Assembly (NCBI GenBank): GCA_030066135.1
Contig: JASJCD010000001.1
Location: 1 to 44,658 of the forward strand
Direction: 5' to 3'
DNA from: Desulfobacterales bacterium
Lineage (GTDB): Bacteria > Desulfobacterota > Desulfobacteria > Desulfobacterales > UBA5852
Length of the DNA stretch: 44,658 nucleotides
In this document: one piece after another, positions 13,196 to 25,159 of the stretch
Position numbering within the stretch: the stretch's first letter is position 1
How the letters are laid out: every line of letters begins with the position of its first letter
Made by a program: the position numbers and the translations under genes
The notes under the pieces: generated by a model
What the model saw: the letters and a program-made list of their open reading frames with translations, nothing else
What the model was told of the DNA's origin: nothing
The model's database searches: none

Positions 13196-13340
13196 TTCAT
13201 AATGTTAACTTTCAGGCCCCCCGCCGGAACATACCCACTGACAGCCTTGGCCGGCAACTTGACACATGGGGGCCCGATTCTTATTTCCGGATGTGAGCTT
13301 TGCATGCTCCCGTCCAAGGTTAATACATCCCAGGTTTGAA

Positions 13341-14288
13341 ATGATGAAAACATTGTTCCGATCAGCTGCGTACAGACAAATCGCTGTGACGATCCTGGGC
13401 GTATTCGGCATTGGCCTTCTGATCGGTGCGAACGCCGAGGCCCTCAGTCGAGACGAACGCATCGCTCAGGCCCGCCGGGACTGGCTGGTCGGCCTGGCCA
13501 CCGAAAGGCGGATTGCCGAGGATCTGGCCCGCTATAAATCATCGGACCAGGCCTCGCCGGAAGTCGTCCAGCTTTACGAAACCTATCTGGATCGCGTGCG
13601 GCGCCTTACCGCCGAAAAACGCAAGCTTCTGGATGCCCTCCAGGGCGACCGCAGCAAAGGATCGGCGTCGGCCCATTCGGGCGGTGCTAAAACGAAGTCA
13701 CCTTCTCAGCCCGTATACGATCCCCAGATTCCTGAAGATCAGGAACTTGACGAGATCCGGGCCCTGAATGCGGAACTCGACCGCTCGCTGGCGGCCTTCG
13801 ACGACATGCTCCTGCGAGAAATCGAACAGTCCCGCGTCGAATCCGAGCTCAAAATGCAGAAGTTGGCCCGTGAGGCCGCCCGGGCCGCCAGGTCACTGCG
13901 CGACCAAGGCCAGATGGAGGGCAGCGAAGACACCGAGCAGGGACTGAAAGAAGGCCAGAGCTCCACTGGCAGCGGGAATGAAACCGGAAAAATGGAAGGC
14001 GACCGGCAAGGAGAACAACAGCCGGCCGGGGGGGCCGCGGGCGAGCGTGACGCCGAGGCCAGCCAGAAAGAAAGTGGCCAGGGAACCGATCTGGCCCGCT
14101 CAGAGAACAGGCAAACCAAGGGCACCGCCTCCGGGGAAGCGGGGTCACCGGGCGAAGACGATAACATCAACACCCAGGATGACGATATTGTCGCCCGCCA
14201 GTTGCGGGAAGCTGCCGAAAAGGAAACCGATCCCGAGTTGAAAGAAAAGCTGTGGAAAGAGTACCGCGACTACAAAAAGAGTATTTAG
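13341..14288 (+). CDS. Secreted coiled-coil protein with low-complexity G/E/Q linker and compact C-terminal helical domain
   Basis: Signal peptide ending ANA-EA, helical segments, acidic disordered linker, C-terminus DDDIVARQLREAAEKETDPELKEKLWKEY. Start at ATG 13341. Confidence 0.7.
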   Translation: MMKTLFRSAAYRQIAVTILGVFGIGLLIGANAEALSRDERIAQARRDWLVGLATERRIAEDLARYKSSDQASPEVVQLYETYLDRVRRLTAEKRKLLDALQGDRSKGSASAHSGGAKTKSPSQPVYDPQIPEDQELDEIRALNAELDRSLAAFDDMLLREIEQSRVESELKMQKLAREAARAARSLRDQGQMEGSEDTEQGLKEGQSSTGSGNETGKMEGDRQGEQQPAGGAAGERDAEASQKESGQGTDLARSENRQTKGTASGEAGSPGEDDNINTQDDDIVARQLREAAEKETDPELKEKLWKEYRDYKKSI

Positions 14289-15562
14289 GGTTTCCCGACG
14301 CCAGTCTTACAGCGAGGACCGGTAAGCGCCAAAATCGACGGCGGCGTCCTGTGTTGGTTTCCCTGCTGGGATGTATATTGGTCACGGCTTTAAGCGGCTG
14401 CGCCAGCCACAGTTACAATGCCCGCAATGTGGAGGCCACCCCGATCCAGATCGCCCAGCAGGAGATTCCCGAAGCGGATCTGCTCGACGTGGGGATCGTC
14501 GTTTTTGAAAGCGCCGAGCTTACCGAGGAAGACATCGAGGACAAGGGCACCAACAACGAAATTCGGCAATCCGAGACCCATTTCATTCCCTGCCACCTGC
14601 GCAATACTCTGCAGCGCAGCGCTCAGTGGGGAGCGGTACGCGTCATACCGGAAGAAAGCAGCACCCATGATGTTCTGCTCACCGGCACCATATTGGAATC
14701 CAACGGCCAGGAACTCGTCATTAAAATCAAGGCCACCGATGCCCGCGGCCGCCTCTGGTACGAGGAGACCTATCGTCAGGAAGCCACCGGGGTCTCCTAT
14801 AAAGACAATATCCCGTGGGAGCAGGATGCCTATCAAAACCTTTATAATACGATTGCCAACGATCTGGCCGACCATCGCAAGAAACTCCCGGCCGGTTCAG
14901 TCGACCGGATCCGTTCGATCGCCAAACTGCAATTTGCCCGGGACTTCGCCCCCGATGCCTACGAAGACTACCTCGTCGAAAATGACGATCAGGAAGTGAC
15001 TTTAAACCGCCTGCCGGCGGACGACGATCCCCAGATGGCCCGCCTGATGACCATCCGCGAGCGTGACCACATGTATATCGACACGCTAAATCAATACTAC
15101 GACGGCTTTTATGCCGGAATGTGGCCGGCCTACGAGAATTGGCGCAAGCTGGATCTGACCGAACGGCTGGCCCGGGAGGAAATCGAAAAATCCGCCATGC
15201 TGCGCAAAGCCGGCGGCGCCATGTTGGTGGCCCTGGCCATTTTGCTGGAAGTGACCCAGTCGGGGGCCGGGAATATGCTTCAGGGCGTGATGGCGGTTTC
15301 CGGCGGGCAGGTGTTCATGAGCGGTATCAACCTCTCCAAGCAAGCGGAAATGCACTCGGCGGCCATCGCGGAGCTGAGCGAATCGTTCGGGGCGGATATG
15401 GAACCGGTCAATCTGGAGCTCAAGGGCCAAACCTATGAACTGACCGGTTCAGCCCAAGAGCAATATCGGCAATGGCGGGCGCTCTTGCGTCAGATCTACC
15501 TGCGGGAAACCGGTTTCGAACCTGTCGCGGACGACGGCCCTGACGTGAGCGTGGCCGATTAA
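14252..15562 (+). CDS. Lipoprotein of unknown function
   Basis: Arg-rich n-region, hydrophobic h-region and lipobox LSG-C; second hydrophobic segment near residue 330. Start is uncertain. Confidence 0.7.
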   Translation: MERVPRLQKEYLGFPDASLTARTGKRQNRRRRPVLVSLLGCILVTALSGCASHSYNARNVEATPIQIAQQEIPEADLLDVGIVVFESAELTEEDIEDKGTNNEIRQSETHFIPCHLRNTLQRSAQWGAVRVIPEESSTHDVLLTGTILESNGQELVIKIKATDARGRLWYEETYRQEATGVSYKDNIPWEQDAYQNLYNTIANDLADHRKKLPAGSVDRIRSIAKLQFARDFAPDAYEDYLVENDDQEVTLNRLPADDDPQMARLMTIRERDHMYIDTLNQYYDGFYAGMWPAYENWRKLDLTERLAREEIEKSAMLRKAGGAMLVALAILLEVTQSGAGNMLQGVMAVSGGQVFMSGINLSKQAEMHSAAIAELSESFGADMEPVNLELKGQTYELTGSAQEQYRQWRALLRQIYLRETGFEPVADDGPDVSVAD

Positions 15563-15634: not shown

Positions 15635-18046
15635 ATGCCGCCTCCAATCCCTTCATCCATTCGTCCACAACAGATTCTCGGCGATCGTTTCGAGCTGCTC
15701 GCGCTTCTGGGCCGGGGGGGCATGGGGGAGGTCTGGCTCACACGGGATCTCGAATTGGAGGTCCGCATTGCGCTGAAACTTTTGCATCCGCGTCTGGCCG
15801 CCGCCGAGGGCGCAGTTGCGTTCATGAAAAACGAATGCCGGGCCGCCCGCCGTCTGACCCACCCCAATATCGTACGTGTCTACGATTTCCACCAGCAGGA
15901 CGATCTGGCGTTCATTTCCATGGAGTGGATCGAGGGTCCCACCTTTGATCGCTGGATGCTTTCTGACGGAACCGATCAGTTGCAACCGGTCCGCGTGCTG
16001 GGCACGGTGGCCGATGCCCTGGACCATATCCATGGGCAGGGGCTGGTGCATCGCGATGTCAAGGCCCGCAACATCCTGATGACCCCGCACGGGCAGCCGA
16101 AATTGACCGATTTTGGCATTGTCGGTCTATGGCGTTTCCAGGAGGACATGCTGAACATCCAGACCGGAGGATCCGCCGCGGGCATGAGCCCCCAGCAGCG
16201 CGAAGGCCACCCTCCGGATCCGGCCGACGATATCTATGCTCTGGGGGTACTGCTGCAGGTGACGCTGGCCGGTGGCCCCAACCCGGCTGTCACCCTGGAC
16301 CTCCCCGGGTCTGACGAAACCGTGGTTCCCGAGATAGAGACGCCCGCGCCTTCAGCCGCCTGGAACACTGGCGCACTGCTGCAGTTGGCCGCCCAGATGC
16401 AGGCGTCTTCCCGCCGCGCGCGCCCCGCCAGCATGACCGTTGTCCGGGATACCATCGATACCGCTCTTGCCGCTGCGGCTGAGAGCACCATGCCGCCGAA
16501 TGCCGACGTCCACCCGCTGGTTGACGACCGGACGTCAAGGACTGCCGACCATGTCGCGCCGCAATCGTACACGCCCGGTAAAGACATCTCAGCCCCGCCC
16601 TCACGGCGGCCGCCCCCATACTGGGGACTGGGCCTGGTCATGGCGGCCGTGGGGTTGATGGCCGCCGGTATCTGGCTCATCACCGTACTGGCCCCCAAGC
16701 CGCCGGTCGCCACGACGCCGGCGGCGTCCCCCGGGCCGGCAGCGGTTGCACCGCCGGCACCATCCGCAGGCCCCGACGGCGGAACCCGTCTGACACGCGC
16801 CCCCCAGGAAACGGCGCCGGGACCGGATCTCATTACGGCCGAAAAGAGCATGGCCCTCTGGCTGCGCCTCAACGAACAGCTCAAAGAGGCACATGCGGCA
16901 GACTGGGCGGCGGAACGGCTCGAACAAATTGAAACGCGCGCGCAAGCCGCCGATGCCGCCATGATGGCCCGCGACTATACCGGGGCCGCGGAAACCTATG
17001 GCGCCGCCGTCGCGGAAGGCGAAGCCCTGCTGGCCGAACGCGAGACCCGGTATGCGGCCGCAATGCAGGCCGGCGCGGAGGCCCTGCAGGCGGAGCGGCC
17101 TGCCAAGGCCCGCGATCATTTTTCATGGGCCCTCAGGATAAAGCCGGGCGATGCCGCTGCCAGCCAGGGTCTAGCGGCCGCCGATATACTTACAAAGGTC
17201 ATGGTGCAGATGGACGCCGGGCGCTCCCATGAAAGGGAGGGGCGCTACGAGCTGGCGCTGGCGGACTATGAGGCCGTGCTCGCGATCGACGGCGATTTTA
17301 TCCCGGCCCGGGAAGCCGTGGACCGCCTGCGGGAACAGATCGCCGCAACCCAGTATAATCGTCTGGTGGCCGATGGCCTGAGTGCCTATCACCAGAACCG
17401 GCTGAATGAGGCCCGCGGCCACATCAAGGAGGCCTTGCTCTATCGGCCAGGCGGCCATGAAGCCCGTGAAGCGTTGCGGCAAATCGACACGGCGGCGCGC
17501 AATCAGCGCATTGCACGCCTGCGGCAGAGAGGAAACAACGCCGAAAACAGGGAACAGTGGGATCAGGCCCTGAAAGCCTATGAAAATGCACTCGCCATCG
17601 ATCCGGCCCTCCAATTCGCCCGCGATGGTGCCGTGCGCAGTCGCGAGCGCATCCGCCTCGACAAGCGCCTGCGCTATTATCTCGACAATCCGGAGGTTCT
17701 GGCATCCGATCGTTATCTGCAGGAAGCGCGTCAGCTGCTGACGGCGATCGCGGCGCTGGAACCGCGCGGTCCCCGTCTGTCCGGGGAGATCCAAACCCTG
17801 GAAGCCCGAATCAAGGCCGCCCAGACCATCGTCCCCGTAACGCTGCTTTCGGACGGTCTGACAGAAGTGGCTGTGCTGCGTGTGGCCCGTCTGGGTCGCA
17901 TCACCCGCCGGACCCTTGATCTGCGCCCGGGCATCTATACCGTCGTCGGGGCGCGCAACGGTTACAAAGATGTCCGCCAAACCATCCGTGTTGAAGCGGA
18001 TCAGCAGGCCTTGCAGGTGTCGATCGCATGCAAAGAAAAGATCTGA
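15635..18046 (+). CDS. Membrane-anchored Hanks-type Ser/Thr protein kinase with extracytoplasmic TPR-like repeats
   Basis: GRGGMGEV, IALK, HPNIV, HRDVKARN and DFG motifs; TM segment WGLGLVMAAVGLMAAGIWLITV; repeats such as ALADYEAVLAID and ALKAYENALAIDP; short beta-rich C-terminus. Confidence 0.9.
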   Translation: MPPPIPSSIRPQQILGDRFELLALLGRGGMGEVWLTRDLELEVRIALKLLHPRLAAAEGAVAFMKNECRAARRLTHPNIVRVYDFHQQDDLAFISMEWIEGPTFDRWMLSDGTDQLQPVRVLGTVADALDHIHGQGLVHRDVKARNILMTPHGQPKLTDFGIVGLWRFQEDMLNIQTGGSAAGMSPQQREGHPPDPADDIYALGVLLQVTLAGGPNPAVTLDLPGSDETVVPEIETPAPSAAWNTGALLQLAAQMQASSRRARPASMTVVRDTIDTALAAAAESTMPPNADVHPLVDDRTSRTADHVAPQSYTPGKDISAPPSRRPPPYWGLGLVMAAVGLMAAGIWLITVLAPKPPVATTPAASPGPAAVAPPAPSAGPDGGTRLTRAPQETAPGPDLITAEKSMALWLRLNEQLKEAHAADWAAERLEQIETRAQAADAAMMARDYTGAAETYGAAVAEGEALLAERETRYAAAMQAGAEALQAERPAKARDHFSWALRIKPGDAAASQGLAAADILTKVMVQMDAGRSHEREGRYELALADYEAVLAIDGDFIPAREAVDRLREQIAATQYNRLVADGLSAYHQNRLNEARGHIKEALLYRPGGHEAREALRQIDTAARNQRIARLRQRGNNAENREQWDQALKAYENALAIDPALQFARDGAVRSRERIRLDKRLRYYLDNPEVLASDRYLQEARQLLTAIAALEPRGPRLSGEIQTLEARIKAAQTIVPVTLLSDGLTEVAVLRVARLGRITRRTLDLRPGIYTVVGARNGYKDVRQTIRVEADQQALQVSIACKEKI

Positions 18047-20178
18047 ATAATACCACCCGCCCCGATGAAACCACGCCGCCGGATGTCGTCGGCGCGACGA
18101 CTGTCAAACCGGTCGCTTTCGAACCCCGCGGCGCAAAATCCTCTTCCGGTCAGGATCGACGCGGCCGGCTTTGGCTGGCTGCCCTGGGCCTGCCGGCCGT
18201 TGTATTGGCCGTCCTGGCCTGGTTTGTCTTTACCGCCCGCCAACTCGAGCTCGACATTGTGCCAGCGCCTGAAAAACTAACGATCCAGGGCGGTCTCCTG
18301 ACACCCCGCGTGGGCAAAGCCTACCTGCTGCGACCCGGAAACTATCGCCTGCATGCTGTTCGCGCCGGCTACCACGACCTTGAAACCGACTTCCAGATCG
18401 GTGCGGACAAGCATCAGACCCTCAAGTTCACCATGGAAAAGCTGCCGGGCGTGATTCACCTGACCACGCACCGGGAAGGCCAGCCAGCCGAAGCCGTGAA
18501 CGGCGCCGCTGTCGAAGTCGACGGCGATATTCTCGGCCAGAGCCCGCTGGTGGCGGTCGAGGTGCCCGCGGGCCGCCATACGCTCCGCCTGCAGGCGCCG
18601 CTCTACAAACCGCGGCAGGCGCATATCGATGTGGCGGGAGAGGGCCAGAAGCAGACGTTCGCCTTCGGGCTGGAGCCCAACTGGGCTGATGTCAGTTTCG
18701 AGACCAACCCGCCCGGCGCCTGGATTCAATTGGCTGGCCGCCGTCTGGGTCAGACCCCTCTGACGGCACCCCTGGAAGCCGGCCACCATCAGGTGCAAAT
18801 CCGCCGGGAAGGCTACAAACCGGCCTCCACGCGCATTCATGTGATCGCCGGCCAGGCCCTGGCGGTTCCGCCCCTAGCGCTTGAAAAGGTCGCAGGACGC
18901 CTGTTCGTCACCTCCCGCCCCACGGGGGCCAACGTCACGGTTGGCGACCGTTTCTATGGGCAGACTCCCATCGACCTCGCCCTGCCGGCGGATCAGGAAT
19001 ACGTGGTGCGCATTTCCGAACCAGGCTACAAAACGGCCGCGCACCGCGTGCGGGTGGCCAGCGGTGGCAAAGCCTCTGTGGCGGCCGATCTGGTGCCGCG
19101 CCGCGGGAGGATTCGCTTCAAGGTGTCCCCACCGGAAGCCCGATTGCTGGTAAATGGCCAGCCATACGGCCGGGTGCCGGCGTCGCTGGATCTCCTGGCC
19201 GTCCGCCATCAGATCCAGATCGTCAGGGAAGGCTACCGCGACTACCGCACCCAGATTACCCCCCGCCCAGGTTACACTCTGGAGCTCAATGTCAAACTCA
19301 AGCGCCCCTATGAAACCGACGTCCCCGGCATCATCCAGGCCCCCAACGGCTACCGTCTTAAGCTGATCCAACCGGCGGCGGCAACTTTCCGCATGGGGTC
19401 ATCGCGCCGCGAGCAGGGCCGCCGGGCCAATGAAACCCTGCGTGATGTCAGCCTGCGCCACCCGTTTTACATGGGCCTGAAAGAGGTCACCAACGGCCAG
19501 TTTCGAGAATTTCAGGCGGCCCACGACGCCGGCATCTTCAAAAACTATAGTTTGAACCGCAACGAACAGCCCGCGACCCGGATCACATGGCAGCAGGCCG
19601 CCGCCTTCTGCAACTGGTTAAGCCAGCGGGAGGGGCTGCCCCCGGCCTATGTTTCCCAAAGAGGAGGCGGGTTGAAACCGGCGATCCCCCTGAACCATGG
19701 CTACCGCCTGCCGACCGAGGCCGAATGGGCTTTCTGTGCCCGTGTGGATGCATCCGGAAGTGTGGTCAAATACCCCTGGGGGAACAAATTCCCGCCGAAG
19801 GACCGAACCGCGAACCTGGCCGATCAGTCCGCCCAGACGATCCTGCAGCTGTTTCTGCAAAACTACAAAGACGGGCATCCGGTGGCCGCCCCGCCGGGCA
19901 GTCTGAAGCCTAATCACCTGGGTCTGTTCGATATGGGGGGCAACGTCTCGGAATGGTGCCACGACTATTACATGATCTATCCCTATACCCAAGGCCGGGT
20001 GGTCACCGATCCGACCGGTCCGGCAACCGGACGCCACCACGTCATCCGGGGGGGAAGCTGGAAGCAGGCCTCAATCCAGACCCTGCGCGCCGCCCACCGC
20101 GATTATCAGGAGAAGAAGCGCCTGGATCTGGGATTCCGTATCGGCCGCTATGTCGCGCCAAACAAGGAGACAGACTGA
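18028..20178 (+). CDS. TM-anchored PEGA-repeat and SUMF1/FGE-sulfatase-like domain protein
   Basis: N-terminal TM; repeated PEGA-like units (TNPPGA..GQTPL, SRPTGA..GQTPI); C-terminal FRMGS, EVTNGQF, YRLPTEAEW, GLFDMGGNVSEWC, VIRGGSW and GFR. Lacks the FGE catalytic Cys pair after RGGSW. Confidence 0.9.
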   Translation: MQRKDLNNTTRPDETTPPDVVGATTVKPVAFEPRGAKSSSGQDRRGRLWLAALGLPAVVLAVLAWFVFTARQLELDIVPAPEKLTIQGGLLTPRVGKAYLLRPGNYRLHAVRAGYHDLETDFQIGADKHQTLKFTMEKLPGVIHLTTHREGQPAEAVNGAAVEVDGDILGQSPLVAVEVPAGRHTLRLQAPLYKPRQAHIDVAGEGQKQTFAFGLEPNWADVSFETNPPGAWIQLAGRRLGQTPLTAPLEAGHHQVQIRREGYKPASTRIHVIAGQALAVPPLALEKVAGRLFVTSRPTGANVTVGDRFYGQTPIDLALPADQEYVVRISEPGYKTAAHRVRVASGGKASVAADLVPRRGRIRFKVSPPEARLLVNGQPYGRVPASLDLLAVRHQIQIVREGYRDYRTQITPRPGYTLELNVKLKRPYETDVPGIIQAPNGYRLKLIQPAAATFRMGSSRREQGRRANETLRDVSLRHPFYMGLKEVTNGQFREFQAAHDAGIFKNYSLNRNEQPATRITWQQAAAFCNWLSQREGLPPAYVSQRGGGLKPAIPLNHGYRLPTEAEWAFCARVDASGSVVKYPWGNKFPPKDRTANLADQSAQTILQLFLQNYKDGHPVAAPPGSLKPNHLGLFDMGGNVSEWCHDYYMIYPYTQGRVVTDPTGPATGRHHVIRGGSWKQASIQTLRAAHRDYQEKKRLDLGFRIGRYVAPNKETD

Positions 20179-20480
20179 TGCCGGCGGCCGCCAGAGGATG
20201 GGGGGTCGGCCTGTTGCTGGTGGTCTGGCTGCTGGCGGCTCATCCGGCCGGGGCTGAGAACGATGCCGCCGTCTCGCCTTCCCCGCCCCCCCGCCAGTCA
20301 GCGGAAAGTAACGAAGACCGTCCGGAAAACGCCGCGTCCGAATCATCTGCGGAGGCACAAGCCCGGCCGGCCGCCAAAGCGCCGGACCGGTCCCCGGCGA
20401 CGCCGCGCAACCGCAAGCCTTTCCAGCCCTCGGAGGAAATCCACGTGGACAAAGCGGTGGATTTCCCGGCGGACATATGA
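20178..20480 (+). CDS. Small secreted protein with disordered body and ordered C-terminal peptide
   Basis: ATG overlaps the upstream TGA and has a GGAG RBS. Signal peptide ending AGA-E, Pro/Ser/Ala-rich body, terminus FQPSEEIHVDKAVDFPADI. Confidence 0.7.
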   Translation: MPAAARGWGVGLLLVVWLLAAHPAGAENDAAVSPSPPPRQSAESNEDRPENAASESSAEAQARPAAKAPDRSPATPRNRKPFQPSEEIHVDKAVDFPADI

Positions 20481-20486
20481 CACTAG

Positions 20487-20750
20487 AAACTATCTCAAAA
20501 TTAAGATTAGGGTTCCTGGACGGCGTGCGACGGCGATAAAGCGGAGCATACACGCAAGTATGTATGCAGGCTCGTAGGGCAGAGACCCTGCGATTCTGAT
20601 CAAAGCCGGCTCACGATGCACCGTTTTTTTGTAGATCAAGATGCTGAATCCCGCATCGCGGGGACTCACCGCCATGAATAAAAACCAGTGAGGAATCCAG
20701 CAAAGCGGAAAACGCTGCCCGGGGCACTTGGATTATTTTTGAGATAGGTT
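20487..20750. mobile_element. MITE-like non-autonomous element
   Basis: Imperfect terminal inverted repeats with perfect 11-bp core CTATCTCAAAA (20490-20500) / TTTTGAGATAG (20737-20747). Internal palindromes, no transposase. Confidence 0.55.
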
Positions 20751-20809
20751 TTTATCGGGGGCGTATCCGGCCCCCGGCAACCATCATCAACCCCTTTGCG
20801 GATACGCCG

Positions 20810-21613
20810 ATGAAACACAATCTGCCTGTTTCGTTTGAATTTATCTACCAGTTGTTTGCCCTGATCATCATTGTGATCGCGGTGCACGCCGTCTACGTGG
20901 CCGCCATTCGTCCGGCGGCCGATACCTTCCTGCAGCAGCAGGCCGAACGCGTGGCCAGCGGGCAGCCGGCGGAAACGGAGCAATCGATTTTTGTGATGAT
21001 CCGGGATTATGAGCAGGAGGCCTGCTTTATTCTGATGTTCTGGGCCCTGGCCATCATGGCCTATAAAAGCATCACCACCATCCGCCATCGGCGGCTGCTG
21101 AACGAGGATCTGATCCCCCTGGCCGAGGGGGTCCGCGTGCTGCCCGAAGACACCCTGGCCCTGTCCCGCCGTATCCAGGCCCTGCCTGCCGAACAGCGCC
21201 AATCGCTTCTGCCGCGGGCCCTGCTGGCCGCCCTGCAGCGTTTCAGCTCGACGCGCAACATCCAGGATGTGGCCAATGCCATGCATGCTTACTGCTCGAG
21301 CGAAGGCGAACGCCTGGACAGTGAACTGGCCATGATCCGCTATATCGCCTGGGCCATTCCTTCGGTCGGATTTATCGGCACCGTGCGGGGCATTGGTCAA
21401 GCCCTGGGCCACGCCCACAAGGCCCTTGAGGGCGATATCATGGAGGTTACCCGCAGCCTGGGCGTAGCGTTCAACTCCACGCTGATCGCGCTGCTCATCA
21501 GCATCGTGCTCATGTTTCTGCTCCATCAGCTGCAACTGCTGCAGGAACGCTATATTCTGGATTCGGAAGCTTACTGTGAAGACAAACTGACCCGTCGGCT
21601 GCACACCCGTTAG
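20810..21613 (+). CDS. MotA/TolQ/ExbB proton channel family protein
   Basis: Four predicted TMs; IPSVGFIGTVRGI and LGVAFNSTLIAL channel motifs. Confidence 0.9.
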   Translation: MKHNLPVSFEFIYQLFALIIIVIAVHAVYVAAIRPAADTFLQQQAERVASGQPAETEQSIFVMIRDYEQEACFILMFWALAIMAYKSITTIRHRRLLNEDLIPLAEGVRVLPEDTLALSRRIQALPAEQRQSLLPRALLAALQRFSSTRNIQDVANAMHAYCSSEGERLDSELAMIRYIAWAIPSVGFIGTVRGIGQALGHAHKALEGDIMEVTRSLGVAFNSTLIALLISIVLMFLLHQLQLLQERYILDSEAYCEDKLTRRLHTR

Positions 21614-21624
21614 AGGATACGCAG

Positions 21625-23043
21625 GTGAACATCATCGGACTGGAAATACACGACACCGGCATCCTGTGTGCCGGCCCCGAAGGCCGGCTGCACCCCACGG
21701 ACGCGGAGGCCCTGGAGAGTCCGGGATTCGCCCTCGTGCACGGCCAGAATCTACAGCTCGGCATGTCCGCGCTGCACCAGGCCCGGCGGCGTCCCCGGCA
21801 GGTCATTTGCCGTTTCTGGGAAGAGCTCAACACCCAGCCGCTACTGAGCCCGGAGTTCGAGGGCTACAATCATGCCGAGCTGGCATACCGGCACCTGGAA
21901 CAGGTATGGCGCCAGGTTAGCGCCGATGCCGCGGAGGTGGTGCTCACCGTTCCCGACCACTACGAGGACCGTGAACTGGGCCTGCTGCTGGGCATTGCCT
22001 CCGTCCTGGGCCTGCCGATCCGCGGACTGATCTCCCAGGCGCTGGCCTGTACCCCTCCCGAAACCGATCAGGGCACCGACTTCCACGTTGATCTTCATCT
22101 CCACCGTCTGGTGCTTACGGCCGTCGATGGCCGCCCCCGCCCGGAAGTGGTCCGGCATGAAACCATCATCGATCAGGGCCGGGAGGCCGTCCACCGCGAG
22201 TGGGTCAAAATGCTGGCCGATGCCTTCGTGCACCAGACCCGGTTTGATCCGCTCTATGCGGCCGATGCCGAACAGGATCTGCACGACCGCCTGCCGCAAA
22301 TCGCCGATGCGCGGCAGCAGGACCCGATCCATGTCGAAATGCAGGCCGACGGTCGGACCCATCGCATCCAGCTCGATCAGCAGGCCTTTATGGCCCCTTT
22401 GGCCCCCTGGATTGAAAATCTCGGGCACACCATCGGCGACTGGCAGAGAGCGCTTTCCGTGTCGCCGGATGATTCCCGTCTCGTGCTGACCCATCGGGTG
22501 GCCGCGCTGCCGGGGTTCGTGGACACCCTGGAGAATGTTACCGGTTTGAAAGCCCGTCGGCTGTCTGCGGGTGCGGCCGCCGCCAACGCCCTGGCCTACG
22601 CCCAACTATTCTCCAAAGGCAGTACAGCACACGGGGTACCCTACCTGAAGCGCGTTCCCAGGGCGCCGGCGGACACGGCCGCGGTGCGCGCCGCGGCCCC
22701 GGCGGAAGACGAACCTGACCTGCCCACCCACCTGCTCTACCGCGGCCGGGCCTACCCCATCGTGGACGAGCCCCTGGTGGTGGGTCGTGAGCTGCCGGCC
22801 GGTACACGCGGTATTCTTATCCAAGGCCGGCTGGCAGGTGTTTCACGGCATCATTTTTCGGTAATCCGCGAGGATCAGCAGGTCCTGCTGATCGACTCCA
22901 GCAGCTATGGCACCCTCGTGGATGAAGTGCCGGTGATGGACCGCCGCGCCCTGATGGTGGGTCAAATCATACGCATCGGAAAACCGGGGGAAACCCTGCA
23001 GGCCATTGCCTGCCTGTCGCACCATGAAACGACGATCCCTTAA
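21625..23043 (+). CDS. Degenerate Hsp70/actin-fold protein with C-terminal FHA domain
   Basis: IIGLEIHDTG, VVLTVPDHY, GLPIRGLISQALA and HVDLHLH parallel the DnaK motifs. FHA motifs are VVGRE, GVSRHH and SSYGT. Confidence 0.7.
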   Translation: MNIIGLEIHDTGILCAGPEGRLHPTDAEALESPGFALVHGQNLQLGMSALHQARRRPRQVICRFWEELNTQPLLSPEFEGYNHAELAYRHLEQVWRQVSADAAEVVLTVPDHYEDRELGLLLGIASVLGLPIRGLISQALACTPPETDQGTDFHVDLHLHRLVLTAVDGRPRPEVVRHETIIDQGREAVHREWVKMLADAFVHQTRFDPLYAADAEQDLHDRLPQIADARQQDPIHVEMQADGRTHRIQLDQQAFMAPLAPWIENLGHTIGDWQRALSVSPDDSRLVLTHRVAALPGFVDTLENVTGLKARRLSAGAAAANALAYAQLFSKGSTAHGVPYLKRVPRAPADTAAVRAAAPAEDEPDLPTHLLYRGRAYPIVDEPLVVGRELPAGTRGILIQGRLAGVSRHHFSVIREDQQVLLIDSSSYGTLVDEVPVMDRRALMVGQIIRIGKPGETLQAIACLSHHETTIP

Positions 23044-24115
23044 TGTATTCAGCCTGTCTTTCATCGACTGCATCTGTTGCGGTCTGGGGGCTGTTATCCT
23101 GCTCTTCGTCATCGTCAATGCCAAAAGCGCCGTACAGCGCGAAAAAGTGACCCGGGATGTCCACAGCGAGGCCACGCGCATTGAACGCGAAGTCCTGGAG
23201 GGCCGCAAGCGGCTGGTGGAGTTGAGGAACGCACTCGAGAAAACCGAGGCGGATATTGCGCGCACGCAAGGGGCCAGCCGCCGTATTCTCAAGCGCCTGG
23301 AAGAACGCCGCACCGAGATCGCGCACTACGACAAGGAGAACCTGGCGGAGAAAGCCCACCTCAACAAACTCAAAGCCGACGTCCGCTCCCTGGAGGAAGA
23401 AGTCAAACGACTCAAGGCCGGCAGTCAGGCCGAAGACGACCGGGGCGACACCATTCGCACTTTTGCCGGCGAGGGCGACCGTCAGTACCTGACCGATCTC
23501 AAGGTGGGCGGCCGCCGTATCTTCATCCTCGTCGACACCTCGGCCAGCATGCTCGACGACACCATCGTCGGCATCATCCGCCGGCGCAACATGCCCGCGG
23601 CGGAAAAAATCAGATCGCCCAAGTGGCGCCAGGCCGCTGCCACAGTAGACTGGATTACGGCCCAGTTGCCGGCCGAGAGCAAGTACCAGATCTACACCTT
23701 CAATGAGAGTGCCCAGCCGCTTGTGCCCGGTACCCGCAACCAGTGGCTGCCGGCCGCCGAGAGCAAGCGCCTGGACGAAGCGGTGAAACGACTCTATGAG
23801 ACCGCCCCGGAGAAGAGCACCAGTCTGGCCAACGCCTTCGACGCCCTCAATCGCCTGACGCCGCCGCCGGACAATATCTTTCTGCTGACCGACGGGCTCC
23901 CCACCATGGGGGCCGGCAAACCCTGGCGCCGCAAGGTCTCCAGCAAAAAGCGCCTGAGCCTGTTCAACGATGCCGTCGAAAAGCTGCCGGCCAAGGTGCC
24001 GGTCAACGTCATCCAGTTCCCCCTGCGGGGGGACCCCATGGCCGCCAGCGCTTTCTGGCGGCTGGCCACCCGCACCCGGGGCAGCTATTTCTGCCCGGCG
24101 GCGGACTGGCCCTGA
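23024..24115 (+). CDS. Single-TM coiled-coil VWA-domain protein (ExbD/MotB-like N-terminus)
   Basis: MKRRSLNVFSLSFIDCICCGLGAVILLFVI, coiled coil, MIDAS DTSAS...LLTDG. Start at ATG 23024. Confidence 0.85.
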   Translation: MKRRSLNVFSLSFIDCICCGLGAVILLFVIVNAKSAVQREKVTRDVHSEATRIEREVLEGRKRLVELRNALEKTEADIARTQGASRRILKRLEERRTEIAHYDKENLAEKAHLNKLKADVRSLEEEVKRLKAGSQAEDDRGDTIRTFAGEGDRQYLTDLKVGGRRIFILVDTSASMLDDTIVGIIRRRNMPAAEKIRSPKWRQAAATVDWITAQLPAESKYQIYTFNESAQPLVPGTRNQWLPAAESKRLDEAVKRLYETAPEKSTSLANAFDALNRLTPPPDNIFLLTDGLPTMGAGKPWRRKVSSKKRLSLFNDAVEKLPAKVPVNVIQFPLRGDPMAASAFWRLATRTRGSYFCPAADWP

Positions 24116-24130
24116 AGGGGGCGAAAGCCC

Positions 24131-25159
24131 ATGGCCCGCGAACGACGCCAAATCGAAATTTTCAGCCTGTCCTTTCTGGACTGCATCTGCTGCGCCTTCG
24201 GGGCTATCATTCTTTTGTTTGTCCTGTCCAAATTTTCCGAACCGACGGTCATCGAAAAGGTGCGCACGGACCTGCGGGCCGACATCATCCGGATGGAAGA
24301 AGAACGCCATGAAATCAGAGGGCAGACCGTGCTCCTCGACCGGGAGCTCACCGCCAAACGTGTGGTGCAGTCCCAATCGCGTCAGAAACTGGCCCGCCTT
24401 CAGGGTGACCTCACCGCCATCGAGGGTGAATTCGCCGCTTCACGTGACGATGCCGAGGTCCAGAACATCATCGAGGGTCGCATGGCCCGCGCCCTGCAGG
24501 AGCTCACGGAAGAAATGAAAAAACTCTCCCTGGCGCCGCGCAAAAGGATCGACCGCCGTGTGGGCGGCATCCCCGTGGACAGCGAATACATCATCTTCAT
24601 CATCGACACCTCGGGCAGCATGCAGCGCGCCGCCTGGGTGACGGTCCAGAACAAAATCCGCGAGACCCTCGACATCTACCCCAAGGTCAAGGGGATTCAG
24701 GTCATGAACGATATGGGCGAATACATGTTTCCCCATTACCGGGGAAGATGGATCCCCGACACGTCGCGGTTCCGCAACCGGATCGTCGATACCCTGCGGA
24801 CCTGGTTTCCCTTCAGCAACAGCAGCCCCGTGGAAGGCATCACCGAAGCCATACGAACCTATTACGATCCCGACCTTCGCATCAGCCTCTATGTTTTCGG
24901 GGATGAGTACAGCGGCAAAAACATGCAGGGGGCCATCGAGGCGGTGGACCGGATCAACCGCGCGGACAAACAAGGCCGTCGTCGGGTGCGTATCCACGCG
25001 GTGGGGTTCCCCACCGTACTGGACGATCCGCGGGGCATCACCGGCGTGCGCTTCGCCACCCTGATGCGCGCCCTGTGCGAACGCAACGGCGGCGCCTACG
25101 TGGGCCTGAATCAATCCCACGGGTTGGGCACCGGGCGCGGCATCCGCATTCGTTTCTGA
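24131..25159 (+). CDS. Single-TM coiled-coil VWA-domain protein (paralog of the previous gene)
   Basis: FSLSFLDCICCAFGAIILLFVL, coiled coil, MIDAS DTSGS...VFGDE. Confidence 0.85.
   Translation: MARERRQIEIFSLSFLDCICCAFGAIILLFVLSKFSEPTVIEKVRTDLRADIIRMEEERHEIRGQTVLLDRELTAKRVVQSQSRQKLARLQGDLTAIEGEFAASRDDAEVQNIIEGRMARALQELTEEMKKLSLAPRKRIDRRVGGIPVDSEYIIFIIDTSGSMQRAAWVTVQNKIRETLDIYPKVKGIQVMNDMGEYMFPHYRGRWIPDTSRFRNRIVDTLRTWFPFSNSSPVEGITEAIRTYYDPDLRISLYVFGDEYSGKNMQGAIEAVDRINRADKQGRRRVRIHAVGFPTVLDDPRGITGVRFATLMRALCERNGGAYVGLNQSHGLGTGRGIRIRF

Follow-up and report, generated by a model that had tools for sequence, protein, structure and literature searches.

A pair of VWA-domain proteins as candidate B subunits of a MotA/ExbB-type motor within a conserved gene cluster of bacteria

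The locus and its two VWA proteins

The window analysed here, i.e. the whole stretch of 44,658 nt of DNA read on the forward strand, comes from contig JASJCD010000001.1 of a Desulfobacterales bacterium (GCA_030066135.1). From position 13266 to position 25159 its + strand carries a tight run of genes, several of which overlap their neighbours slightly or stand 11-15 bases apart in the list of open reading frames (ORFs). The run ends with a gene for a MotA/ExbB-type channel (A) subunit (hereafter the MotA-like protein), a gene for a protein that joins a nucleotide-binding domain (NBD) of the Hsp70 type to an FHA domain (hereafter the FHA protein), and two genes coding for proteins with a VWA domain, VWA1 and VWA2 (Table 1). 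The subject of this study is the VWA pair, its probable role as the B-type subunits of an ion-driven motor, and the conserved cluster of eight genes in which it is found. Relatives of the locus were collected in a scan of one genome per species, which returned 602 stretches, 599 of them confirmed (a lower bound); relatives of the VWA-motor trio are present in at least 599 species genomes. The best 80 loci were taken for the locus counts; all of their ORFs were searched with the window proteins, and the counts were restricted to loci with enough flanking DNA.

VWA1 and VWA2 align with one another from end to end (26% identity, E 2e-19), with near identity over the first 30 residues. In each, a basic N-terminus leads into a single hydrophobic helix that contains an Asp residue, and a stalk resembling a coiled coil then connects to a VWA domain bearing a DxSxS motif. 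This architecture had been described in an earlier note on this DNA, made from the sequence alone, and is confirmed by the alignment and the located motifs. The helix spans residues ~9-31 in VWA1, with Asp15 (D15; codon 23066) and C19, and residues ~11-33 in VWA2, with D17 (codon 24179) and C21; the two Asp codons had been placed correctly in that note, given the ATG start codons of the two genes. The VWA domain carries D171-x-S173-x-S175 and D290 in VWA1, and D159-x-S161-x-S163 and D258 in VWA2, the stalk of which is ~14 residues shorter than that of VWA1. The stretch between the helix and the VWA domain matches coiled-coil families alone (e.g. Fez1, SMC and TolA_bind_tri), which is consistent with the long coiled coil suggested before and makes a coiled-coil stalk a reasonable prediction. 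When the N-terminal parts of VWA1 (residues 1-165) and VWA2 (residues 1-152) were folded together, the interface score (ipSAE) was 0.27, 0.32 and 0.30 (threshold 0.32), values that speak neither for nor against a contact.

The VWA domain of VWA1 is recognized by the Pfam VWA_2 model (E 5.9e-8, 33.7 bits; cut-off 27). For VWA2, Pfam returned no match at E ≤ 0.01, and a profile search against solved structures gave coiled-coil matches plus an integrin I-domain at E 0.4-0.5 and nothing else; its orthologs match VWA_2 weakly (33/37, best E 5e-4) and, in 20 of 37 cases, PF00092. These ortholog matches, together with the paralogy to VWA1 and the invariant residues of the metal ion-dependent adhesion site (MIDAS) type, indicate that VWA2 has a VWA domain as well. 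The DxSxS motif is kept in 80/80 VWA1 orthologs and 76/77 VWA2 orthologs, and D290 of VWA1 and S229, S231 and D258 of VWA2 are invariant. The pair thus shows the MIDAS pattern (DxSxS followed downstream by Thr/Ser and Asp), and metal binding is predicted for it. Each paralog is 45-60% identical to its own orthologs in other phyla, as against 26% identity between the two, which fits an old duplication and two non-redundant partners.

A conserved Asp in the helix and the absence of an ExbD gene

Database searches show that the VWA proteins have a great many relatives. Searches with VWA1 scored 8000 candidates, 4821 of which matched at E ≤ 0.001; with VWA2, all 8000 of the 8000 candidates scored did so. 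In a library clustered at 50% identity, 1640 representatives were found at E ≤ 0.001 and 310 at E ≤ 1e-30. The residues of the helix were counted in the best 150 representatives, 115 of which have an intact N-terminus and the G-[FLA]-G-[AS] anchor. Most of the remaining 35 are fragmentary or were called from a start within the helix, and the Asp can still be seen in three. The helix Asp is present in 114 of the 115 intact representatives, in 80/80 VWA1 orthologs of the related loci and in 75/75 VWA2 orthologs that carry the anchor (of 77 in all), so that the conservation implied by the earlier note is borne out. Moreover, the motif F-S-L-S-F-L-D-x-[MI]-x-C-G-F-G-A is conserved across phyla, unlike a signal peptide, and its F-x-D-[LV]-M-S core is also found in the MotB of the same genome.

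The three Cys residues close to the Asp behave differently. The Cys just before the anchor, which follows the Asp by four residues (about one helical turn), is present in 109/115 representatives, 80/80 VWA1 and 75/75 VWA2 orthologs. At the other two positions Cys occurs in 37 and 36 of the 115 representatives, and the full CxCC in 12/80 VWA1 and 32/75 VWA2 orthologs. Thus, the Asp is a constant of the family and the CxCC, which the earlier note had proposed as a possible cross-link or redox gate of the dimer, is a trait of lineages and finds no support as a family feature; the last Cys alone is invariant, and this invariant single Cys in the VWA helix is new here.

The MotA-like protein matches PF01618 (MotA_ExbB; E 1.5e-14, 54.3 bits, cut-off 22.9). 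Since it falls below the NCBIfam equivalog cut-offs for both TolQ and ExbB, it is neither of these. Four hydrophobic segments are seen by inspection; T191 in the third (codon 21380) and N222 and T224 in the fourth (codon 21479 for the latter) are invariant in 35 MotA-like sequences, as is a G-F-x-G-T-V-R-G-I stretch. We take T191 and T224 to match in position the Thr residues that line the pore in ExbB, TolQ and MotA/PomA. The cytoplasmic loop of the protein also contains a near-invariant Thr148 with Ile or Val at +3 (residues 148-151; 21251-21262). Thr with Ile or Val at +3 is the pattern preferred by many FHA domains once the Thr is phosphorylated. Thr148 is kept also in loci that have no FHA gene, and is Ala in one locus (L005).

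Genes of the MotA_ExbB family occur three times in the source genome (3.98 Mb, 80% complete). One adjoins the sole ExbD gene of the genome and another adjoins a gene for MotB with an OmpA-like end, so that the genome also has a standard ExbB/TolQ-ExbD/TolR pair and a standard MotA-MotB pair, between them on contigs C19 and C252 (L002 and L004); the third is the gene for the MotA-like protein of the window, and its sole candidate B neighbours are the VWA pair. No ORF for ExbD was found in the 80 related loci by hmmsearch at E ≤ 0.01, using a profile made from 20 ExbD sequences of related genomes.

The surrounding eight-gene cluster

The earlier note had overlooked that the genes for the MotA-like, FHA and VWA proteins belong to a larger conserved cluster of eight genes, which includes a kinase gene. 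In the related loci VWA2 always follows VWA1 directly, and the remaining six genes are found upstream in nearly every case (Table 1); at one locus (L006), four of the upstream genes lie instead downstream, on the opposite strand, and are still adjacent. The best 80 loci belong to Gammaproteobacteria (Woeseiaceae, Halieaceae, Steroidobacteraceae and Pseudomonadales), Myxococcales, Desulfuromonadales, Kiritimatiellia, Verrucomicrobiota and Vicinamibacteria, and the carriers include cultured, non-pathogenic species: Congregibacter variabilis IMCC43200 (L066), Pseudohalioglobus sediminis NY5 (L049) and Biformimicrobium ophioploci NKW57 (L073). In the phylum of the source genome the VWA1 gene is patchy (4/301 sampled genomes at E ≤ 1e-30), and it is common in the source genus (11/13 genomes); VWA1 of the window is ~50% identical to gammaproteobacterial orthologs. 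This distribution, patchy in the phylum and common in the genus, would agree with a spread of the cluster by horizontal transfer. Across the 80 loci the cluster contains no conserved effector gene. A defence system, Zorya included, was considered as the identity of the cluster and rejected, because the PADLOC matches were only generic (kinase and coiled-coil models, plus ZorA2 at E 0.0057 and 13.7 bits, with no ZorB match).

Table 1. Features of the gene run in the window, with the place of each gene in the related loci and the number of loci in which it was found there
Feature	Position	Strand	Assignment and basis	Place in related loci	Loci
U1	13266..14288	+	first gene of the conserved cluster; without family (Pfam, NCBIfam)	upstream of U2	28/28 (loci with enough DNA)
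U2 lipoprotein	14252..15562	+	without family (Pfam, NCBIfam); fold by model	upstream of kinase gene	47/49
Ser/Thr protein kinase with TPR repeats	15635..18046	+	Pfam	upstream	50/52
PEGA-FGE protein	18028..20178	+	membrane-anchored; Pfam	upstream	58/60
Small ORF	20175-20480	+	poorly conserved; ORF list		
MotA-like protein	20810..21613	+	MotA/ExbB-type channel (A) subunit, 267 residues; PF01618	upstream	68/69
FHA protein (Hsp70-NBD-FHA)	21625..23043	+	472 residues, cytoplasmic; Pfam FHA and model	upstream	70/75 (lacking in L023, L027, L040, L062, L084)
VWA1	23024..24115	+	363 residues, ATG start at 23024; VWA_2		
VWA2	24131..25159	+	342 residues, ATG start at 24131; paralog of VWA1	directly downstream of VWA1	75/75

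The FHA domain of the FHA protein (E 6e-8, residues ~365-462) follows a region (~1-345) that has, in a model with a mean predicted local distance difference test (pLDDT) score of 90, the fold of the NBD of Hsp70/DnaK (Foldseek E 3e-18 to DnaK; TM-score 0.78 to a DnaK NBD chain). The FHA domain would thereby occupy the place that the substrate-binding domain has behind an Hsp70 NBD. The kinase shows a Pkinase domain (E 8.7e-29) with HRD and DFG motifs visible in the translation, a hydrophobic segment in the middle of the protein and C-terminal TPR_1 and TPR_2 repeats (E ~3e-11). The kinases of the cluster come in two length classes, of ~500-535 and ~735-835 residues, and that of the window is of the long form, with TPR repeats.

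The PEGA-FGE protein has four PEGA stretches (E 2.3e-57) and an FGE-sulfatase domain (E 2.1e-41). It also matches the GldK model (E 3.7e-33), with 115 bits against a cut-off of 350, and by these matches it falls within the GldK/PorK and TagR superfamily as an ortholog of neither. In U2 a lipobox Cys (Cys50 in the numbering of the present reading) is invariant in 29 sequences. The start codon of U2 is uncertain, the listed GTG overlapping U1 by 37 bases. The model of U2 (pLDDT 81.9) consists of an N-terminal α/β domain, followed by a long helical hairpin whose turn is hydrophobic and rich in Gly. In the model the N-terminal domain has the fold of the PelC/FlgT/TolB-N/CsgG/LptE lipoproteins (VIA-align Z scores from 11.4 to 8.5: 11.4 for the FlgT ring, 10.4 for PelC with a root mean square deviation of 2.6 over 110 residues, 10.3 for TolB; Foldseek matches at E 2e-5 to 1e-3); a profile search of U2 against solved structures gave nothing useful. 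Several proteins of this fold form rings beneath the outer membrane. U2 shares the predicted fold of these ring lipoproteins and need not share their function. The modelled folds of U2 and of the FHA protein are new here. U1, as judged from its translation, starts with a hydrophobic segment (anchor or signal), continues through a coiled-coil-like part and an acidic stretch of low complexity, and ends in a conserved C-terminus; its only Pfam match is a weak one to the ATG16 coiled coil.

The small ORF between the PEGA-FGE and MotA-like genes has a signal-like start and a low-complexity sequence, with a weak match in just 2 of the 80 related loci, and may not be a real or conserved gene. The gap 5' of the MotA-like gene contains a dispersed repeat of ~140 nt (20485-20625), which lies outside the conserved cluster and has 27 matches in the genome at E ≤ 0.001, 13 of them near full length (at least 129/156 bases) and 85-88% identical. 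Contigs from two metatranscriptome runs of one study match pieces of the cluster at a depth of 2-6, and some differ from it by 0-1 bases over 220-270 bases; these are at most a weak hint of expression, as carried-over DNA could also account for them. A spike in depth at 20452-20865 was considered as a small RNA of the cluster and rejected, since it is due to the dispersed repeat; Rfam gave no match in this region.

A candidate 5:2 motor with VWA heads

In ExbB-ExbD, TolQ-TolR and MotA-MotB, as at the present locus, an A subunit of the PF01618 family goes together with a helix that carries an Asp near its cytoplasmic end. The locus differs from these motors in that the B pair would be heterodimeric, and in the periplasmic part, which is an ExbD fold or an OmpA-like peptidoglycan binder in ExbD and MotB, and a long stalk with a MIDAS VWA domain here; the plug helix and OmpA-like domain by which MotB is recognized are not among the Pfam matches of VWA1 and VWA2, the C-terminus of which is the VWA domain.

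A role of such proteins in 5:2 motors has been put forward before. A recent computational study (PMC12204202; Mol Biol Evol 2025, section 8 and Fig. 4) describes vWA proteins that are tethered to the membrane and tightly associated with tolQ homologs, in loci without tolR or exbD; according to that study they form mostly heterologous pairs and have a TolR/ExbD-like trans-pore helix (TPH) with a conserved Asp; AlphaFold 3 placed the helices and the Asp pair inside a TolQ-like pentamer, with a ring of Thr residues around them. That a VWA pair provides the B subunits of a 5:2 motor has therefore been published before as a hypothesis. The lone helix with a conserved Asp, the C-terminal vWA domain, the heterologous pairing, the position beside a tolQ/motA-like gene in the absence of tolR/exbD, and the conserved Thr residues of the A subunit are common to those TPH-vWA loci and to the locus of the window (PMC12204202). 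In the portions of that paper drawn on here the words kinase, FHA, cysteine, MIDAS and coiled do not occur, and the passages on the TPH-vWA proteins are without a PEGA-FGE gene, a lipoprotein gene or a stalk, all of which are features of the window locus. What is new here is that the VWA-motor trio forms part of a conserved envelope cluster of eight genes, together with a module of kinase and FHA protein.

We consider it probable that VWA1 and VWA2 are the B-type inner subunits of a 5:2 ion motor of the MotA/ExbB type in which the MotA-like protein forms the pentameric A ring. That the pair replaces ExbD or MotB is suggested by the invariant Asp, by the presence of both paralogs at every locus examined, by the absence of a B gene from the cluster and by the conserved Thr residues of the MotA-like protein, and also by the fact that the other two motors of the genome each adjoin their own B subunit. 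The comparative evidence supports this reading well without proving it; insertion into the pore, a 5:1:1 stoichiometry, ion flux, the ligand and control by phosphorylation are inferred. In such a motor, the N-terminal helix of each VWA protein would insert in the pore of the pentamer, so that D15 and D17, about six residues in from the cytoplasmic end, would face Thr191, Asn222 and Thr224 and could take up and release the coupling ion. The stalk of ~125-140 residues, mostly coiled-coil-like, would carry the pair of MIDAS VWA heads into the periplasm, where the heads, in place of a peptidoglycan- or TonB-binding domain, may hold on to an acidic ligand and transmit rotation or a pulling force. 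From the cytoplasmic side, the motor would probably be switched on and off by the membrane Ser/Thr kinase and the FHA protein, and the PEGA-FGE protein, U2 and U1 are candidate partners in the periplasm or the outer membrane. The insertion of a heterodimeric B pair has a precedent, as AglQ and AglS are predicted to lie together in the AglR5 pentamer of the Myxococcus gliding motor, and in the same account the FHA domain of GltG is predicted to touch the A ring (PMC11761067). AglQ and AglS are, however, TolR-like and without a VWA domain, and the FHA domain of the window locus differs from that of GltG in belonging to a soluble protein, where it is joined to a domain of the Hsp70 type.

Several results weigh against this reading. 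A comparison of the helix with the 20 ExbD sequences using hhalign, although it aligned Asp on Asp, was not significant (E 0.15, probability 0.4%, 10 columns). The ExbD and MotB families are absent from the Pfam matches of VWA1 and VWA2 at E ≤ 10, the ExbD/TolR model (PF02472) included, and neither is among the 25 most frequent Pfam families of their orthologs. The likeness of the helix to ExbD and MotB is thus one of motif, and homology is not demonstrable from these comparisons. The fit of the locus to the published TPH-vWA family was judged from the descriptions in PMC12204202, e.g. that of its Idiomarina example, rather than from sequences, and full-text searches of the literature returned no experiment on any member of the VWA-pair family and no paper on this cluster other than PMC12204202. 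Of the replacement of ExbD/MotB claimed in the earlier note, then, the comparative part stands and agrees with the published model, and a significant relationship between the helices was not obtained.

The same lack of significant homology to ExbD or MotB would be expected if the VWA proteins were bitopic periplasmic scaffolds or sensors beside the pentamer or the kinase, with the Asp, Cys and Gly residues serving helix packing. The small residues of C-G-F-G-A would suit a lateral packing of helices, and another vWA family has been proposed to bind at the rim of the motor in the manner of TolA and TonB (PMC12204202). Those transducers, however, have a helix of the SHLS type with a conserved His that marks rim binders (PMC12204202); by inspection, no His occurs anywhere in the profile of the window helix. 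Moreover, an invariant acidic residue in a lone helix, at the depth at which it lies in ExbD and MotB of the same genome, would be costly unless functional, and no other B subunit is encoded in the 80 loci. We therefore regard a position beside the pore as unlikely.

The complex could also be assembled as proposed and act as a sensor, in which strain on the heads or a bound ligand would open the channel and the signal would pass inward through the kinase and the FHA protein. The kinase, FGE-type protein, lipoprotein and FHA protein of the cluster are the types of part found in PpkA, TagR, TagQ and Fha1, which act in the threonine phosphorylation pathway of the H1 type VI secretion system of Pseudomonas and are likewise encoded in one cluster (PMC13713981), so that a sensor would resemble this pathway, or sensing of the Zorya kind. 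The cluster differs from that of the H1 system in that no type VI genes and no phosphatase were seen in it, and in that its output would be a motor. The want of a conserved effector gene, the generic nature of the PADLOC matches and the strong single-copy conservation across phyla, more that of an envelope machine than of a defence system, make a sensor a quite improbable reading. Finally, removal of the N-terminal helix as a signal peptide, which would leave the VWA proteins soluble in the periplasm and on which the earlier note's proposal would have fallen, is very improbable: the basic N-terminus, the hydrophobic stretch and the V-N-A at the end of the VWA1 helix of the window, a passable cleavage site, would agree with it, but the stretch is ~23 residues long, F, D, C, G, G and L are invariant in it from phylum to phylum, and the site itself is not conserved, the would-be -1 position being His in 42/115 representatives.

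Beyond the motor proper, it is possible, although doubtful, that the products of all eight genes form a single phospho-regulated machine, of a sort not described before, that spans the envelope, with a proton-driven 5:2 motor and heterodimeric MIDAS VWA heads. The heads of such a machine would engage the ring-type lipoprotein U2 (PelC/FlgT-like) or the GldK-like PEGA-FGE protein, or both, and the switch would be a threonine phosphorylation read by the FHA protein, docked on the MotA-like ring from its cytoplasmic side. In the system for type IX secretion and gliding, the genes follow the order gldKLMN. As in GldK-GldL-GldM, a gene for a protein of the FGE-sulfatase fold lies here just upstream of those for a MotA-like motor and a single-pass periplasmic partner; the FGE protein of the window differs from GldK in carrying PEGA domains and in its low score on the GldK model, and no relatives of GldM or GldN were seen.

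Flagella, nutrient import, envelope maintenance, gliding and phage defence are all driven by 5:2 motors of the MotA family. If the VWA pair is indeed the B pair, inner subunits that end in adhesion-type VWA domains would be a new output for the MotA-family engine. The conserved association with a kinase and an FHA protein suggests that phosphorylation switches the motor, a mode of control that is rare in the MotA family and lends itself to an easy genetic test. Were the eight genes to encode one machine, a fifth kind would be added to the MotA-family systems, beside flagella, Ton/Tol, gliding/type IX secretion and Zorya, present in hundreds of species of several phyla.

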